A stretch of 64,000 nt of DNA. Source: Escherichia coli. GTDB lineage: Bacteria > Pseudomonadota > Gammaproteobacteria > Enterobacterales > Enterobacteriaceae. The stretch lies in the NCBI RefSeq assembly GCF_030013595.1, contig NZ_CP122768.1; one strand, 5' to 3'. The number at the start of each line of letters is the position of its first letter. The stretch's first letter is position 1. Shown here in pieces: positions 51,565 through 59,047 of the stretch. The position numbers were made by a program, and so were the translations under genes. The notes beneath the pieces were generated by a model. The model was not told the origin of the DNA. It was given only the letters and a program-made list of their open reading frames with translations, and did not search any database.

Positions 51565-52792
51565 ACATGTATTCCCGGTGAAAAAAGACAAAACCCCGCG
51601 CACCGGAAAGGTGGCGGGGGATTCACGGAGATAATATCTGTCTGAAATTGTTTTTAATCGATGGGATTGTTGCGTATTAACATGAAGGAGATCAGGACTT
51701 ATCCGTTACTGGGTGATCTCCTTCCATGAAAATACGCCGTTATTGTTAAACAGCAGGCTGATTTCTCCGTAAAGGGGAAAATATTTATCGGCTGCATGAT
51801 TATCAGGTGTGTCTGTGTTTACTGCTGTGAGTATTTTTCAGTGTATTGTGGGGGAGATGTCAGTGGGAGATATTAAATTTACATTTATAATTATCTTACT
51901 TCTTCTGTGTGTTTTTTATAAGAGTGCACACGTAATGATATCTGTTGATACCATGTGGTTAAGTGTTTCCCTTCCTGGTCATGCGTAATGATTAAATGCT
52001 TTTGTGACACCATTCTTCCGGTCTGAATATTTATCCCGTTCTTTTTTATTTGTGCAGTGATACTGTCGGAAGAGAATTCAGTAATGTGAGGTGTCCTGGT
52101 CAGGATAATATCTGCTGAGATATTATTAGTTGAGTGTGTTTTTACTGAGCAAAAGCTGGCTTTTAATTCCTGTACTGAAACACTGTCGCTCGTCCGGGGT
52201 TAACTGAAACTGGATGATGATGTAAAATGAAGGCTGTTTTTGTGTTTGTCGAAGAAGTGTTATTTTAATCCATTCTCATCATTGGCTGGCGATTATACAG
52301 AAGTATTTGAAGAAAAAATGGTGCATTTTATCTGTGTCAGCAGGGAAGAAGTATTTTATTGATGTATCAGTATTAAATGGTTTTTGTTATTTATAAAAAT
52401 GTCATCCTGTCCATAGAATATTGTACTCAGCATTCAGTGCAGGAACTGTAGTCTTCTTTATTTTATTCTTCTTCAGGAGGGGGGATTCCTGAAGGCGTTA
52501 TTCCCGGTGTTCTGTTTATGATTCATCCCGGCAGGAAACCGGTATCTGCAATACCCGGGATGATGCTTTTTGTTCGTACGTGGTTGTGTAAAATTTGAAT
52601 AGTGGATGTGCTCTGAAGGGAAGGAGGGGACACACAGATTCATTTTGTCTTTCTTCAGCAGCAAAACACACTGTGGTTATTATTTAACCATTAAATCAAC
52701 AAAAATTTTTACCTCATATTGATTTGACTGCTATTTTTGCTATTAATAGCCAGAATTGCAGTGCTTTTATATCTGTGTGTAGTGAGGTTACT

Positions 52793-54277
52793 ATGTCATT
52801 CGGTCAGCCTTGTGATGAGTTTCCCCTGAGTTCGCTGCCTCCACTCATTCGTGATGCCGTTATTGAAGCTCAGCAAATTACGCAGGCTCCCCTTGGGCTT
52901 GTGGCAGCGTCTGCCCTGGGCGCTGTTTCACTTGTCTGCCAGAATCTGATTGATGTCTGCAGACTGAATACACTGCGGGGGCCGGTCTCTCTTTTTTTCC
53001 TGACGCTTGCCGAGTCCGGAGAACGAAAAACCGCAGTGGACAAATTATTAATGAAGCCCCTGTACCAGCAGGAGATGCAGTTATATTCCAGATACAAAAG
53101 TGAACTGGCTGTCTGGAAAAACAAGGAAGAGCTTTTAAAGGCTCAGAAAAAAGCATTGTTGTCAAAACTGAATAAAGAACTCCGCAAAGGCGCGGATGAG
53201 TCAGAAACCCTCAGACAACTGGAAGTACTTCAGAAAAACAGTGCGGAAGAACCTGTGAGGTATAAATTCATTTTTAATGATGCCACGACTGCGGCAATTA
53301 AGAATCAGCTTTGTGGTAAATGGCGTTCAGTGGGTATTATGTCAGATGAAGCCGGTATTATATTTGATGGATATACCCTGTCTGAGTTGCCTTTTATTAA
53401 CAAAATGTGGGATGGCTCTGTATTGTCTGTGGACAGAAAGAATGAACCCGAACAGATGATTGAAAATGCCAGAATGACGTTATCCCTCATGGTGCAACCC
53501 GGTCTTTTTGACCGATATATGGAGCGAAAAGGTTCTGTTGCCAGGGACAGTGGTTTTCTTGCCCGTTGTCTTATCAGTAAACCTGCAACCACGCAGGGGA
53601 AACGCTTTATTAACGGAGCTGTGATTCCGGGAGGATCATTAACGGCATTTCATGAACGATTAATGGAACTGGCCAGAGGCAGTATTGAAAAATCCAGTGA
53701 GGATGAACGGTATTGTCTGCATTTTTCGCCTGAAGCGCAAAAAATATTTATTGAGCACTATAATGTTCTGGAGCAGGATTTATCCCCTTCCGGACCCTTA
53801 AGCCCGTTTCGGGGACATGTTTCAAAAAAAACAGAAAACATTGCAAGAATTGCAGCGTTATTTCAGTATTTCAGCTATGGTGAAGGGAAAATCTCTGCCG
53901 ATATCATGACGTCTGCTGTCGTAATAAGTTCGTGGTACACAGATGAATATAAAAAATTATTTGCGTTACCTGATGAATCTGAACTGCAGCAGAAGGACGC
54001 CGAGGAGCTGTTCGACTGGCTCATTGAGGAGTGCCGCGGAGAATGCCCACCCCGTGTCAGGAAAAATTATATTCTCCAGTGTGGCCCGGGTCGGTTCAGA
54101 AACAGGAAAAAACTGAACGCATTGCTGAACATTCTTGAATCTCAGTTCAGGCTTTCTGTCGTGCCGGAAGGAAAAACCATGTATGTTCTGCTTCCCCAGA
54201 TAGCCAGTTTAAAGTTGTCTGATGTCTCTGGTATTTTTACCTCGGGTTATCACTACAATAAGCTGAGAGCGAAGTAA
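52793..54277 (+). CDS. DUF3987-domain protein (YfjI-like)
   Basis: ORF start at MSFGQPCDEF with GAGG RBS; family assignment from sequence resemblance only. Confidence 0.6.
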   Translation: MSFGQPCDEFPLSSLPPLIRDAVIEAQQITQAPLGLVAASALGAVSLVCQNLIDVCRLNTLRGPVSLFFLTLAESGERKTAVDKLLMKPLYQQEMQLYSRYKSELAVWKNKEELLKAQKKALLSKLNKELRKGADESETLRQLEVLQKNSAEEPVRYKFIFNDATTAAIKNQLCGKWRSVGIMSDEAGIIFDGYTLSELPFINKMWDGSVLSVDRKNEPEQMIENARMTLSLMVQPGLFDRYMERKGSVARDSGFLARCLISKPATTQGKRFINGAVIPGGSLTAFHERLMELARGSIEKSSEDERYCLHFSPEAQKIFIEHYNVLEQDLSPSGPLSPFRGHVSKKTENIARIAALFQYFSYGEGKISADIMTSAVVISSWYTDEYKKLFALPDESELQQKDAEELFDWLIEECRGECPPRVRKNYILQCGPGRFRNRKKLNALLNILESQFRLSVVPEGKTMYVLLPQIASLKLSDVSGIFTSGYHYNKLRAK

Positions 54278-54598
54278 CCGGTGAGCAGTTTTTCTCCATT
54301 ATGCTTCAGACTTAGATGATTGATTATTATGGGGATTTCATCACCGATATTCAGATGTATGAATATCGGTGATGAACTAAAGCTCAGGAGCTGCGTGGTG
54401 GTGATGAATCAACAGGCATATAACTGATACCCGCCGGTCAGAAGTTCCAGCCTGCGACTTTCCTGTCTGCGTGCCCGCAGTCCGGCGTTCAGGTGCAGCG
54501 TGTGACAGAACGCACGGAGAGCGAAACGGCAGGCAGACAGGCCGTTCAGTCAGCCCTGGCACCCTGCCCGGATACCAGCTTCCCTGAAACAACTGGCA

Positions 54599-55207
54599 TC
54601 AGGTGCGCTTATCGTCAACCGTTGTGCGGTATGCCAGGAGCACGTACTGATCCATCAGATCCGTCAGTGCTGCGCTCTGCTTCTGACGGTTGATGATCCA
54701 TTCCTCCAGCTCTTTTTCTGATTTCCGTTTCAGATTCTCCGTCCAGTCGTCAAGGCAGTTTCCGGTCATTAAATCAAGCCAGCAAAGCCAGACCAGTTTG
54801 AGGCGCAACTCCGTGCCACCAAACTGACGGAAGAGGCTGATCAGTTTATTTGCCAGCGAACGCTGCCTCAGACGTTCACATTCAGACAGGAGAATGCCTT
54901 CCAGCATCGGATGATGAACCAGCAGATGTTCACTGGTGCATAAATTCACTATCAGATCATCATCCAGGGGCGGCGTGGTCCGTTTGTCCGGACCATAAAT
55001 CAGCCGGTGCAGACTCTGGGGTACGATGGCAATCTCCGGTTTTTCACCATTGAATGACACCCACCCGGGCGTCAGATTATGGAAGTAGTAGATATTCGGA
55101 TGACACACGCCCCAGGATACGGCGTGCCGGGTGAAGCCGGTCAGCCATTTCTGGTAGCTTTCGTGGAGCAGCTCGTAACGGGTCTGATACTGTGGTTTCA
55201 TTTTCAT
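54599..55207 (-). CDS. Hypothetical island protein (about 202 aa)
   Basis: ORF with GAGGAA RBS before ATG-AAA-ATG; co-directional with and downstream of alpA. Confidence 0.5.
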   Translation of the reverse strand: MKMKPQYQTRYELLHESYQKWLTGFTRHAVSWGVCHPNIYYFHNLTPGWVSFNGEKPEIAIVPQSLHRLIYGPDKRTTPPLDDDLIVNLCTSEHLLVHHPMLEGILLSECERLRQRSLANKLISLFRQFGGTELRLKLVWLCWLDLMTGNCLDDWTENLKRKSEKELEEWIINRQKQSAALTDLMDQYVLLAYRTTVDDKRT

Positions 55208-55287
55208 ATTCCTCACGGGGGATAACAGGCAGCAGAACGCCGCCGGCAGGCCGGAGACTGCGTCTGTTGCAGATGAACGGTTAAGAA

Positions 55288-55494
55288 TTACGGACGGGAC
55301 TGTGCAATACGCGCCTGCAGCCAGGCTTCCACTTCGCTTTTCAGCCATCGGGAGCTGCGGCCCATTTTGATGGGCGCAGGAAAGTCACCATCCTTGATGA
55401 GTTTGTAAAACCACTTATCGGTCAGGCCGGTCAGTTGAGTGATAAATGCCATGTCGACCATCTGGTCATCCATCAGTGAAACTGGGGTGAGCAT
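55288..55494 (-). CDS. alpA: AlpA-family transcriptional regulator (prophage CP4-57-type regulator)
   Basis: HTH pattern FITQLTGLTDKWFYKLIKDGDFPAPIKMGRSSRWLKSEVEAWL. Confidence 0.75.
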   Translation of the reverse strand: MLTPVSLMDDQMVDMAFITQLTGLTDKWFYKLIKDGDFPAPIKMGRSSRWLKSEVEAWLQARIAQSRP

Positions 55495-56823
55495 GAGAAT
55501 GTTCCTCCGGATGTTGTTAAACCAGCCGGTGTGGTCATGAAAACAACGCACCACCTTCACCGGCATAACAACCGGGGAGAAACGTAAAAAATAATCGGGA
55601 ATGTGACCGCCAGGAGATAAACGGGGAGGTTACGGTGGCTGAGCCGTACCGGTATGCCGGGTGGTTGTTACGAAACGATGCTTCCGCACGCGCGCGCGAT
55701 AAAGAAGGGATGATTTTCGTGAGGAAGAGGGGAAAACTGGCGTTCTGATAATTGCAGAGTTATTTACGGGGCGGTTACGATGGGGCAGACCGTGTCCGGT
55801 GGGCAGGCGACAGGTATCACCGATGGGATAAGACTGTCTGATTGGTATTATAAATATATAAGAGAGATCAAACACATGAGATCAAATACATGAGTTCATA
55901 TATGTGAAATAAACACGGTGAGTGTGATCAGTGGGCATGATGAGAACGCAGTAGCAACAGACTGCGCTATCCCTGATAGCTGGCGTATAACCCGCGTATA
56001 TAAAACGTATCTGCAATGTACGTGAACAGAGTGCATTAAGCATCCGTCTGAGCGGTAAACATATCCGACCTGGTGAGTGACAGTCTGAGAGACCGGTTAA
56101 GTGGTGGCTCGGGAGTAATGAGTTTGGGGTGGGTACCAGAATGCCAGTCTGGCGGTATGCTGACAGTATCACGTTAATTGCAGCATAAAGTGATGAGAGG
56201 CTAATGGAAGTTAAAACCAAAGCAGTTCCGTCGTTGTTCATCCCGGGAGACGCTGGAAAAAGTGATTTCCCACACGCGTTATAAACTTACCTCTGCGGAA
56301 CTGGAAGCCTTCAACTCTGTGGTTGATCACTGGCTGGCAGAACTGACAATGAACAAGCTTTACGATCGTGTTCCCGCTTCAGTCTGGAAATATGTCATCT
56401 GAGCGTTCGGTAATCACAACTGCATCGCACCAGGTGTTATCCGCTTTGTGATTCTTATTGGCTCTTCTCAGGTTATTAAAAGCTGAATATGTTCCTGTTG
56501 TCGGGAACCAGGATAATACCGGGAACGTTAAGCGGTATAGCGACAACAAAGAATTCGAAATCAAAAGGGAATGGTGCCGGAGGCGTGGGCGGTAATGGGC
56601 TGATTTTCAGGTATTACCGGCTTACAGCGTGTGGTTGATATTGAGGGGCTGTGAGTTTCGCGTATTTGTCAGAAACCCAGACGAGTTTTCCTGTATGGGA
56701 CGAAATAAGGCAGCGGCAATACCTGGAAAAATTTAATATGGTATGAAGGAGAACCTGTCGGTTACGCTTAATATACCCGGTACACTGTCAGCTCAGGGGA
56801 TACATGAACCGTTATCTCACCAG

Positions 56824-57018
56824 CTACACAGTATATACACACTGACTGACGCTGACAGTAGTCAGCAGGACCACAATAATCAGTGCCAGCAGTATGGTAA
56901 CGATACGGTCTGTATTCCGGTAATAGCCGAAGGGGTCGACAGAACCACAATACGGGCAACATGTATTATGAGTAATCGCGTTTCCACAGTCCCTGCACTT
57001 CTTTTTGCGTATCACCAT
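56824..57018 (-). CDS. Small zinc-ribbon membrane protein (CxxC-x11-CxxC followed by one TM helix)
   Basis: 64-aa ORF preceded by strong RBS tgaggagggagtt-ATG; MVIRKKKCRDCGNAITHNTCCPYCGS... Confidence 0.55.
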   Translation of the reverse strand: MVIRKKKCRDCGNAITHNTCCPYCGSVDPFGYYRNTDRIVTILLALIIVVLLTTVSVSQCVYTV

Positions 57019-57216
57019 AACTCCCTCCTCACAGCCTTACCCGTAACCGGTTTTTTACATTAAAAAAACAACGCTGAAAATTCAACCGTCAGTCCGGAGA
57101 CGATAGTTGGGGTATCACAGAGTGCCTGAGACAGTGTCCTGCCGGAGGTCACTTCAGGGACTCTGCGCATTTTTTACGACGTGGCTATTCCGTATGAACC
57201 ATACGGAGATTTAACC

Positions 57217-57786
57217 ATGACCTACAAATACAACCCCTTCTGGCAGCAACGTATTCGTGAGACGGTGCGGCACGCACTGAATGTTCATCCCCGCCTGACG
57301 GCATTGCGGGTTGACCTGCGTTTCCCGGATGTACCGGCAGCAACGGACGCAGCTGTGATATCCCGCTTCATCAATGCCCTGAAAGCCCGAATCGACGCTT
57401 ACCAGAAACGTAAGCATCGGGAAGGTAAACGCGTGCATCCCACCACCCTGCATTACGTCTGGGCCCGGGAGTTTGGGGAGTGCAAAGGTAAAAAACACTA
57501 TCACCTGATGCTGCTGGTTAACCGGGATACCTGGTGTCGTGCCGGTGATTACCGTGCTCCGGGATCACTGGCCGGGATGATTAAACAGGCGTGGTGCAGT
57601 GCCCTGGGAGTGGATGTCGGGTGCCATGCCACGCTGGTGCATTTTCCGGCCTGGCCGGCGGTGTGGCTGGAACGCGATGATGACACTGGCTTTCAGCAGG
57701 TGCTGGAACGTGCTGACTATCTGGCGAAGGAACATACCAAAGCTCACTGCACCGGTGAGCGCAATTTTGGCTGTAGCCGGAGTTGA
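57217..57786 (+). CDS. YagK/YfjJ-like (inovirus Gp2-type) protein
   Basis: ORF from MTYKYNPFWQQRIRETVRHAL. Confidence 0.5.
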   Translation: MTYKYNPFWQQRIRETVRHALNVHPRLTALRVDLRFPDVPAATDAAVISRFINALKARIDAYQKRKHREGKRVHPTTLHYVWAREFGECKGKKHYHLMLLVNRDTWCRAGDYRAPGSLAGMIKQAWCSALGVDVGCHATLVHFPAWPAVWLERDDDTGFQQVLERADYLAKEHTKAHCTGERNFGCSRS

Positions 57787-58039
57787 GCACGACTGGCGCG
57801 CCAATATCCGGCAAACCAAAAGTATGGGTTGTTGTCTGGCGGCAACGATGTATCCACTCGCCCACTGACTGTTTTTTACGTCAGTGTTCCATTGTGTGAC
57901 AACCACAGTGCTGTAACAGCAACCAGCCTGCTTTACCCAAACTCCAGTCCAGATTTTAACTGAACCGCCATTCACACCCTGACCACGCTGCCCGTACCGG
58001 GACGGCTGTTGCCTGCGTGTCGTCTGGCGGCTAAGGAAT

Positions 58040-58447
58040 ATGACTATGTACGCAAAATCCTTTATCGCTCTTGATGGCAACGGACGTCTGACGGGCGCCC
58101 GTACTGCACAGGCCGCACCTTATGCTAACTACACCTGCCACTTGTGTGGCAGTGCACTCAGATACCATCCGCAATACGACACTGAACTTCCCTGGTTTGA
58201 ACACACTGACGACAGGCTGACAGAGCACGGTCAACAGTGCCCTTATGTCAGGCCGGAGCGCAGAGAAATACAGTTGATTAAACGTCTGCAGCAATTCGTA
58301 CCGGATGCCTTACCCGTGGTGCGTAAAGCCAGCTGGCACTGCAGACAATGTCACCACGATTATTATGGGGAGCGGTACTGCACACACTGCCAGACCGGAG
58401 GATTCAGTATTCCCCGGACAACTCAGGAGGAAATATGCGAATTCTGA
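58040..58447 (+). CDS. Zinc-ribbon protein with PWFEH motif (paralog 1)
   Basis: 135-aa ORF; CHLCG...PWFEH...CRQCHHDYYGERYCTHCQTG. Confidence 0.55.
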   Translation: MTMYAKSFIALDGNGRLTGARTAQAAPYANYTCHLCGSALRYHPQYDTELPWFEHTDDRLTEHGQQCPYVRPERREIQLIKRLQQFVPDALPVVRKASWHCRQCHHDYYGERYCTHCQTGGFSIPRTTQEEICEF

Positions 58448-58842
58448 ACTGTTATATGGCGAATGACAGCAAAGGCCATTTTGTTACGGCGAAAGAAGCA
58501 GCGAAGCACAACCGCCAGGACGTTTTGTGCTGTGTGTCCTGTGGATGCCCGTTAACACTTCAGCGGGGCAATGACGGACAACCACCGTGGTTTGAACATG
58601 ACCAGATGACTGTCGCTGAGAAAATCCTGCTGCGATGCACCTGGCTTGACCCGGCAGAGAAAGAGGCCCGTCGTTTGCATCTGCAGGGTATGACGGTTCC
58701 GGATTATACGGTGAAGGTGAGAAAGTGGTTTTGTGTGATGTGTGACGAAAATTATGAGGGGGAAAAGTGCTGCCCGAGTTGTGGTACCGGGGTATACAGC
58801 AGGGAGGGGGGGCAGGAGGGCAACTGGAAGGATAGGAACTGA
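58435..58842 (+). CDS. Zinc-ribbon protein with PWFEH motif (paralog 2)
   Basis: 135-aa ORF with AGGAGG RBS; CVSCG...PWFEH...CVMCDENYEGEKCCPSCGTG; overlaps paralog 1 by 13 nt. Confidence 0.55.
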   Translation: MRILNCYMANDSKGHFVTAKEAAKHNRQDVLCCVSCGCPLTLQRGNDGQPPWFEHDQMTVAEKILLRCTWLDPAEKEARRLHLQGMTVPDYTVKVRKWFCVMCDENYEGEKCCPSCGTGVYSREGGQEGNWKDRN

Positions 58843-59047
58843 GCGGTTCAGTCGCGGAAATCAGTTGCAGAGCTGTAATGATATCTCCGGGAGTGCTGCG
58901 TTGGTAGGGGCATCCCGGGATAGAGAAATTTTAGCACTTTGCCCTGAATGATTGTAGACGTCCCGAGTACTCGTACCGGTCTGAGTTATTACAGTTAGAT
59001 ATTCACTTTTTCTCCCGCATACTTCACATCTGTCAACGACGGATGAA

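Follow-up and report, generated by a model that had tools for sequence, protein, structure and literature searches.

The 64,000-nt stretch of Escherichia coli DNA analysed here (contig NZ_CP122768.1 of assembly GCF_030013595.1, hereafter the window) carries on its minus strand, at positions 56824-57018, a small open reading frame (ORF) that is almost certainly a genuine protein-coding gene. Its product of 64 amino acids (aa) very probably has a tail-anchored zinc-ribbon architecture, in which two CxxC pairs are followed by a single hydrophobic helix at the C-terminus. The gene is real, widespread and uncharacterised, and it represents an unnamed family that is centred on Escherichia and whose architecture is a common one. 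The best overall explanation, to which we give slightly less than even weight, is that of a tail-anchored zinc-ribbon protein of a genomic island, with a head that binds a partner at the membrane.

Coding potential and selection

The ORF begins with ATG at 57018-57016, ends with TAG at 56826-56824 (stop included in the coordinates) and comprises 64 codons; its product, MVIRKKKCRDCGNAITHNTCCPYCGSVDPFGYYRNTDRIVTILLALIIVVLLTTVSVSQCVYTV, is identical to the RefSeq protein WP_001427456.1. The Shine-Dalgarno (SD) sequence GAGGAGGG is located at 57030-57023 on the minus strand, 4 nt (AGTT) ahead of the ATG. A preliminary description, made from the DNA letters of the window, had reported a 64-codon minus-strand ORF with a strong SD sequence and had interpreted it as a genuine small gene whose product is a zinc-ribbon membrane protein with two CxxC pairs and one hydrophobic helix, and the analysis supports all of this. 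The combination of an SD sequence, two CxxC pairs and a segment of transmembrane (TM) grade is found in one of the 343 ORFs of 40-120 aa in the window, namely in this one.

Given that ORFs of such length are common in the window, and that two others overlap positions 56824-57018 (one of them a 106-aa antisense ORF), a chance ORF in non-coding island DNA was considered. This explanation retains practically no probability. It is refuted by the conservation tests described below, which reveal purifying selection specific to the annotated frame; the combination of features occurred in none of 100 first-order Markov simulations of the 64-kb window, and thousands of intact copies of the gene exist.

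Divergent copies of the gene were gathered via BLAST matches and look-ups of the exact protein, and seven of them were compared at the DNA level (the window copy and those at loci L003, L004, L006, L007, L009 and L010); an eighth copy, at L005, has become a frameshifted pseudogene. No stop interrupts the annotated frame in any of the seven lineages, whereas each of the other frames is interrupted in some or all of them. Pooled over the first 120 nt, the ratio of nonsynonymous to synonymous changes (pN/pS) is 0.24 in the annotated frame versus 0.94-1.84 in four other frames; the sixth frame, which is antisense and shares wobble positions with the annotated one, has a ratio of 0.33 but contains 2-4 stops in every lineage. 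Pairwise Nei-Gojobori dN/dS values over codons 2-40 range from 0.05 to 0.29, at dS of 0.3-2.9, and the variable columns in the N-terminal half are distributed as 12/12/28 among the three codon positions. The invariant residues cluster in the two zinc knuckles, the HNT loop and the GYYR-TDR motif, and the basic N-terminus is likewise under constraint. Frame conservation and dN/dS analysis in related islands was among the checks that the preliminary description had proposed, and loss of the reading frame there, which it had named as refuting its reading, did not occur.

Mean pairwise DNA identity among the seven copies drops stepwise across the locus, from 0.897 in the neighbouring Gp2 gene and 0.886 in the intergenic region to 0.807 in codons 1-39 of the ORF, 0.632 from codon 40 to its end, and 0.385 (unalignable) in the 100 nt downstream, so that the end of homology coincides with the stop codon. 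Even in regions without remaining DNA homology, the lineages retain the four zinc-ligand cysteines, the SD core and a terminal helix whose length does not change. Both overlapping ORFs were rejected as genes: the 106-aa antisense ORF at 56743-57063 on the plus strand has stops in three of the seven lineages and a pN/pS of 1.84, and an overlapping 64-aa ORF has stops in other lineages and a pN/pS of at least 0.9.

Protein architecture and probable membrane anchoring

The first zinc knuckle, C8-R-D-C11, is encoded at 56986-56997 on the minus strand; C8 and C11 are invariant in the wide alignment of 15 sequences, and C11 is near-invariant in the family alignment. The second knuckle, C20-C21-P-Y-C24, is encoded at 56947-56961 on the same strand, with C21 and C24 as the putative ligands, and is invariant in both alignments. 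The ligand pairs C8/C11 and C21/C24 (C22/C25 in the common form of the protein) are invariant in 15 of 15 sequences. A juxtamembrane motif, G31-Y-Y-R-N-T-D-R38 (56905-56928, minus strand), follows, with seven of its eight positions invariant and N35 near-invariant across the family. It leads directly into the predicted C-terminal TM helix, residues ~39-61 (56836-56904, minus strand), whose sequence varies by lineage and is always strongly hydrophobic. In the window protein this segment reaches a Kyte-Doolittle 19-residue maximum of 2.99. AlphaFold2, run on an alignment of 12 sequences, predicts one helix at 34-63 and short strands at both knuckles, with a block-mean predicted local distance difference test (pLDDT) score of 81-90 over residues 41-60 and an overall mean of 73.

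From the sequence we infer zinc binding and an N-in topology. The head carries 6-7 lysine and arginine residues in most lineages and 3 in L006, and its basic character fits the positive-inside rule for an N-in orientation; together with the need of a Cys4 zinc site for a reducing compartment, this suggests that the head is cytoplasmic. At the sequence level the protein has the features of a tail anchor, namely a single helix at ~39-61 of 64 residues and at most 8 residues beyond it, and because the helix ends the protein, almost nothing would be exposed to the periplasm. In its predicted topology it resembles the C-tail-anchored inner-membrane proteins ElaB/YqjD/YgaM, DjlC, Flk and TssL, which likewise lack a signal peptide, place their N-terminal domain in the cytoplasm and carry a single helix at the very C-terminus. 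Unlike the small protein, however, these proteins lack a zinc ribbon; there is no sequence relationship with them, and the small protein is much smaller and island-encoded. Insertion of such tail-anchored proteins, as of other bacterial small membrane proteins, is expected to be post-translational (PMC7549839, PMC3426401).

The helix evolves in a very different manner from the head. Its dN/dS ranges from 0.3 to 2.7, while its 19-residue hydropathy maximum stays at 2.82-3.12 in the seven lineages and the total length remains constant at 64-66 aa. At least four unrelated helix sequences occur at the same position, beginning with IVTILLALIIVVLL, IFTALLALLVVVLL, LLCLLTLLLVLILV and IFTLLMVLLVVVLL. 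A helix that is free to change as long as it remains hydrophobic points to a generic anchor, with the activity residing in the cytoplasmic head. Selection cleanly separates an active, putatively cytoplasmic zinc domain from a generic membrane anchor in one small protein.

This pattern bears on two alternative roles in which the helix itself would be active. Many characterised bacterial small membrane proteins act through helix packing (review PMC12648545), and the small protein could accordingly modulate a membrane protein of the host (for example a sensor kinase or a transporter) via helix-helix contacts as MgrB or SafA do. Such recognition would constrain the helix sequence, so that at least four unrelated and interchangeable helices with dN/dS up to 2.7, next to a constrained part that appears to be cytoplasmic, make this role very unlikely.

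The other possibility is a membrane-damaging protein of the type I toxin kind that retains the island, with an active helix and with expression limited by the structure of the RNA or by an antisense transcript. The small protein shares with type I toxins (Hok/Gef, TisB, Ibs, Ldr) its small size, single hydrophobic helix and association with mobile DNA; its SD sequence is strong, the mobile island also harbours the toxin-antitoxin genes cbtA/cbeA, and type I toxins are often prophage-associated (PMC12648545). Conservation is nevertheless reversed relative to what this model would require, with constraint weakest on the helix and strongest on the putatively cytoplasmic zinc ribbon. An antisense promoter-like site at 56852-56880 is present in one lineage only (the window and L010, two of the seven sequences compared) and was rejected as not conserved. 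There is no match to an RNA family in Rfam, the leader is short, and the SD sequence is predicted to be largely unpaired and accessible. To our knowledge, no known type I toxin has a folded zinc domain. A toxin-like role is therefore improbable, and less likely than tethering of a partner by the head.

Relationship to known families and mobile-element proteins

Comparison with curated resources places the protein in no established family. In Pfam the best matches of the window protein score 11-12 bits versus cut-offs of 23-27, and those of the common form are zf-ChsH2 (16.5 bits versus 23.2) and Zn_ribbon_3 (13.7 versus 27), none of them reaching the threshold; NCBIfam gives sub-threshold matches only. 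A sequence search of the PDB retrieved only unrelated zinc knuckles, none at threshold, and a fold search of the PDB likewise returned only zinc knuckles, none significant (best E = 1.2). With the defence models of PADLOC 2.0 there are no matches for the small protein, nor for the Gp2, both DUF7828, 200-aa, YfjI and Hha proteins encoded around it, and the neighbouring AlpA-like helix-turn-helix (HTH) protein gives weak generic matches only.

The consistent sub-threshold matches are to generic zinc-ribbon domains (Zn_ribbon_3 PF13248, Zn_Ribbon_1 PF13240, DZR PF12773, zf-ChsH2 PF12172), which are often located at the N-terminus of single-pass membrane proteins. The small protein shares with these proteins two CxxC/CPxC knuckles ~10 residues apart, a basic N-terminus and one TM helix; unlike them, it ends at the helix without an extracytoplasmic domain and has HNT and GYYRNTDR motifs of its own. 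The island family of Escherichia can be recognised by the signature MVIRKKKC-x2-C...HNT-x-CCP-x-C...GYYRNTDR plus a helix at the end of the protein and by the divergent orientation of its gene to a YagK/Gp2 gene, and the window protein displays all of this apart from one lost loop residue.

In a profile search of 1.84 billion representative sequences, 25 clusters scored below 1e-10, all of the same family, and weak matches (E 8e-5 to 1e-3) were obtained to other proteins of 57-80 aa with the same layout; widening the search added no annotated relatives. These look-alikes, which combine a zinc ribbon with a TM helix (P0179, P0185, P0191, P0198, P0200), resemble the small protein in size, layout and carriage by mobile elements, and in a shared CxxCG...CPxCG-S-x-DPFG-basic-(D)R motif before the helix. 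They differ in that their identity to it is only 28-34% and their neighbours are transfer genes rather than YagK, Hha and AlpA, and they are themselves uncharacterised. In all four cases with a readable context, the look-alike is a lone opposite-strand gene inside a cluster of the conjugative or integrative and conjugative element (ICE) type: beside TraG_N/TraH/TraF (L014, 4001-4219), an SNF2 helicase with AcaB (L016, 3532-3759), DotM_C with a ParA-like gene (L023, 5001-5237), and a type IV secretion system coupling protein with CcdAB (L024, 3002-3181). In phages, the first ~50 residues of the small protein, covering the zinc ribbon and the helix, align with PHROG families 38187, 10292 and 14275 at E of 2e-5 to 1e-3; these profiles span 136-178 positions, include a C-terminal part that the small protein lacks, and are of unknown function.

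Two readings draw on these resemblances. The first is an entry- or superinfection-exclusion factor that would block uptake or establishment of related incoming DNA by conjugation or phage. Exclusion proteins are typically small inner-membrane proteins, and the placement of the four look-alikes inside conjugative or ICE-type clusters, as well as the weak PHROG matches to the zinc-ribbon and helix N-termini of phage proteins, would be in keeping with such a role. Yet the small protein resembles no known exclusion protein in sequence and is matched by none of the PADLOC models; the examined part of the E. coli island encodes no transfer apparatus, the protein would expose almost nothing to the periplasm, and the look-alike homology is marginal. 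We regard this role as unlikely. The second reading, to which we likewise assign a low probability, is that the Escherichia family and the conjugative-element look-alikes form one unrecognised class of mobile-element tail-anchored zinc-ribbon proteins that control the replication or transfer of their own element or exclude rivals, for example by tethering a YagK/Gp2-type initiator or incoming DNA. Should it be true, we would know of no earlier small membrane protein that binds zinc and has been assigned a function; zinc is nowhere mentioned in a 2025 review devoted to bacterial small membrane proteins (PMC12648545).

Proposed role and the state of the window copy

Under the explanation favoured here, the 64-66-aa product of CP4-44/CP4-57-type islands of Escherichia would be a C-tail-anchored inner-membrane protein, in which residues 1-38 would form a basic cytoplasmic Cys4 zinc ribbon ending in the GYYRNTDR motif, followed by the single terminal helix. 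The helix would be inserted post-translationally and serve as a generic anchor. As constraint is concentrated on the head and the helix is generic, the active surface would consist of the zinc ribbon together with the juxtamembrane motif, on the inner face of the membrane. The head may bind a protein or a nucleic acid in the cytoplasm and hold or regulate this partner at that face, and such tethering might serve the maintenance, replication or exclusion functions of the island itself. This tether or adaptor mechanism, taken by itself, is a tentative proposal and rather doubtful. The sole constant neighbour of the small gene is the divergent YagK/Gp2-family gene.

Several observations weigh against this explanation. 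Curated families, solved structures and defence models (Pfam, NCBIfam, PDB, PADLOC) give no functional lead, the candidate promoter is weak, and the marginal homology to the look-alikes of conjugative elements may owe part of its score to cysteine and TM composition. The window allele, moreover, is derived. Compared with the common form of the protein, MVIRKKKCRDCGNAITHNTVCCPYCGSVDPFGYYRNTDRIVTILL.LIIVVLLTTVSVSVCILCSW, a 3-nt deletion at ~56959-56962 has removed V20 (common-form numbering) from the loop that separates the knuckles. A 4-nt GTCA duplication peculiar to this allele (56840-56856, minus strand) frameshifts the last ~7 codons after the helix, where the tail VSQCVYTV replaces VSVCILCSW. 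The island copy around it is also decaying, with a truncated Hha gene, a frameshifted neighbouring zinc-ribbon gene and insertion sequence (IS) elements nearby, and the window copy of the small protein may therefore be impaired.

Taken further, these features would suggest that the family is real and the window copy a decaying, non-functional relic. Besides the lost codon and the rewritten tail, the truncated Hha gene, the frameshifts in the 88-aa gene and in the second DUF7828 gene, the IS elements flanking the module and the many low-frequency frameshifted variants of the small gene in databases speak for this possibility. On the other hand, both knuckles, the juxtamembrane GYYRNTDR motif and the whole helix are intact, and the lost position is variable elsewhere, being occupied by V, M or E. 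The exact window protein is present on at least 1,000 contigs, and the N-terminal half of the window allele differs from the common allele (L010) with dN = 0 and dS = 0.087. A relic is consequently unlikely, though somewhat less so than an exclusion factor.

No current concept is changed by the small protein, as its combination of a zinc ribbon with a single helix is a frequent one and RefSeq already lists the gene as a hypothetical protein. It does, however, offer a tractable entry to the poorly understood AlpA-Hha-YagK/Gp2 module of CP4-type islands.

Island context

The sequence of the window is fully (100%) identical to that of E. coli chromosomes, and according to the annotation of an identical strain the ORF is located in the CP4-44 island adjoining yeeA/tmaR. 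Beyond yeeA/tmaR, the island contains yeeW, cbtA, cbeA, yeeT, yeeS, an antirestriction gene, a DUF932 gene, irmA, agn43 and a GTPase gene, and then the module of the small gene. This module consists of a YfjI-family helicase-like gene (plus strand), a 200-aa hypothetical gene and an AlpA-like HTH gene (both minus), a Hha/YmoA paralogue (plus), the small ORF (minus), a YagK/YfjJ gene of the 'inovirus Gp2 family' (plus), two overlapping DUF7828 + Zn_ribbon_11 genes (plus) and IS elements. The synteny is the same in all divergent copies, the small gene being divergent from the Gp2 gene on one side and followed on the other by Hha on the opposite strand and the AlpA-like HTH gene on its own strand.

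The divergent neighbour, which encodes a protein with a YagK/YfjJ C-terminal domain, lies at 57217-57786 on the plus strand (start at 57217 according to the NCBI annotation pipeline, PGAP) and is adjacent to the small gene in every copy examined. On the other side, at 56253-56402 (plus strand), is the truncated Hha/YmoA-family gene of the hha2/hha3 type, which has a TTG start with an in-frame stop just upstream; its 49-aa product matches positions 24-71 of the 72-position Hha model, and 70-aa versions are found in other lineages. The remains of an 88-aa gene, frameshifted here into three frames, are located at 55635-55857 (plus strand), and its intact counterpart in L005 is WP_000840368.1. The interval 55570-57180 had initially been considered poor in ORFs apart from the small gene, a view that does not hold given these two genes. 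The tandem DUF7828 + Zn_ribbon_11 genes, at 58040-58447 and 58348-58842 on the plus strand, accompany the module in most copies, and the second of them is marked as frameshifted by PGAP in the identical strain.

In E. coli K-12, tblastn detected no copy of the small gene in CP4-57 or in the segment of CP4-6 that was searched, the CP4-44 island and the rest of the chromosome not having been searched, and the annotation shows nothing between yfjI and yfjJ (CP4-57) or beside yagK (CP4-6). The yfjI-yfjJ gap in CP4-57 measures only ~150 bp. The arrangement in the window at ~52724-59000 (YfjI, 200-aa protein, HTH, Hha, small gene, Gp2) is thus a different and fuller version of the module. The CP4-44 island of K-12 has been described as truncated in yeeR and devoid of irmA, aec70 and aec71 in a study of E. 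coli 042. If K-12 lacks the gene entirely, this would explain why no experimental work on it was found.

E. coli 042 carries the identical protein under the tag EC042_RS31190. The neighbouring island genes EC042_2236A to EC042_2241 are up-regulated 2.9-6.2-fold in hha-null and hns mutants of this strain (PMC6480617, Table 1), a table from which the small gene itself is absent. By analogy with these neighbours, the small gene is probably silenced by H-NS/Hha as well.

Distribution and annotation

A survey with a 321-nt query around the ORF identified 6,484 stretches of matching DNA, distributed over 3,504 of the 5,426 complete E. coli genomes (~65%); the median number per genome is 2 and the maximum 6. 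Family members are also present in E. albertii and E. marmotae, and a protein search returned 71 clusters that belong nearly all to Escherichia/Shigella, with single entries from Salmonella and Klebsiella. Among species-representative genomes, 66 matches to a peptide pattern were obtained and none was confirmed by tblastn, probably owing to the very short query.

Collections of phages and plasmids essentially lack the gene, and most of the few plasmid matches are in very large records that resemble mislabelled chromosomes. Three of the 2.9 million viral contigs in IMG/VR carry it. One of these contigs was examined (L026, 3600-10800) and contains a Mu-like prophage, with GemA, Gam, a MuB-like ATPase and an rve transposase, inserted beside the island module, which explains the viral label of that contig.

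The preliminary description had raised the possibility that a gene of this size was missed by annotation, and this proved not to be the case. PGAP annotates the ORF in identical strains as WP_001427456.1, 'hypothetical protein', and an annotated coding sequence covers the match in 38 of 40 cases sampled from E. coli as a whole. The names in public use for the family include 'zinc-ribbon domain-containing protein', 'ribosomal protein L32' and 'anaerobic ribonucleoside-triphosphate reductase'. The latter two look like mis-transfers from zinc-knuckle similarity, as the sub-threshold L32 and NrdD matches align to the knuckle region only. No paper on the protein itself was found in the literature, and a paper on a duplication in E. 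coli 042 covers the neighbouring genes and not the small one.

Start codon and control region

The start codon of the small gene is less uniform than its reading frame. Codon 1 is ATC instead of ATG in three lineages, and PGAP places the start there at this ATC (L003 2582, L004 2583, L005 2583). Codon 2, a GTG (57013-57015, minus strand), is unchanged in every copy inspected and could serve as an alternative start or be the true one; in the three ATC lineages it is the more plausible start. All lineages have, at one and the same position, a purine-rich motif that resembles an SD sequence (GAGG.. / ..AGGGAG). Its predicted mean unpaired probability is 0.35-0.67, and the start codon is predicted to be partly paired.

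A candidate promoter, TTGAAT-N17-TAATGT, is located at 57085-57057 on the minus strand; it is a weak match (7/12) found at the same position in all seven lineages, and its assignment to the small gene, inferred from this sequence match, would imply a leader of ~30 nt. No terminator-like site was found downstream of the ORF, and the single site detected lies upstream and is at chance level. Over 54500-58500, Rfam yielded at E <= 1 only one chance-level match, elsewhere in that interval. The GC content of the stretch is 0.44-0.49 versus 0.52-0.58 in its flanks, i.e. it is only mildly richer in AT.

The small gene and the divergent YagK/Gp2-family gene have in common a control region of 198 nt (57019-57216), which is better conserved across the seven lineages (0.886) than the small ORF. 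It might have a regulatory function or act in the manner of an origin for the Gp2-type protein. Within it, at 57190-57206, a perfect palindrome, CCGTATG-GTT-CATACGG, immediately precedes the ribosome-binding site of the Gp2 gene.

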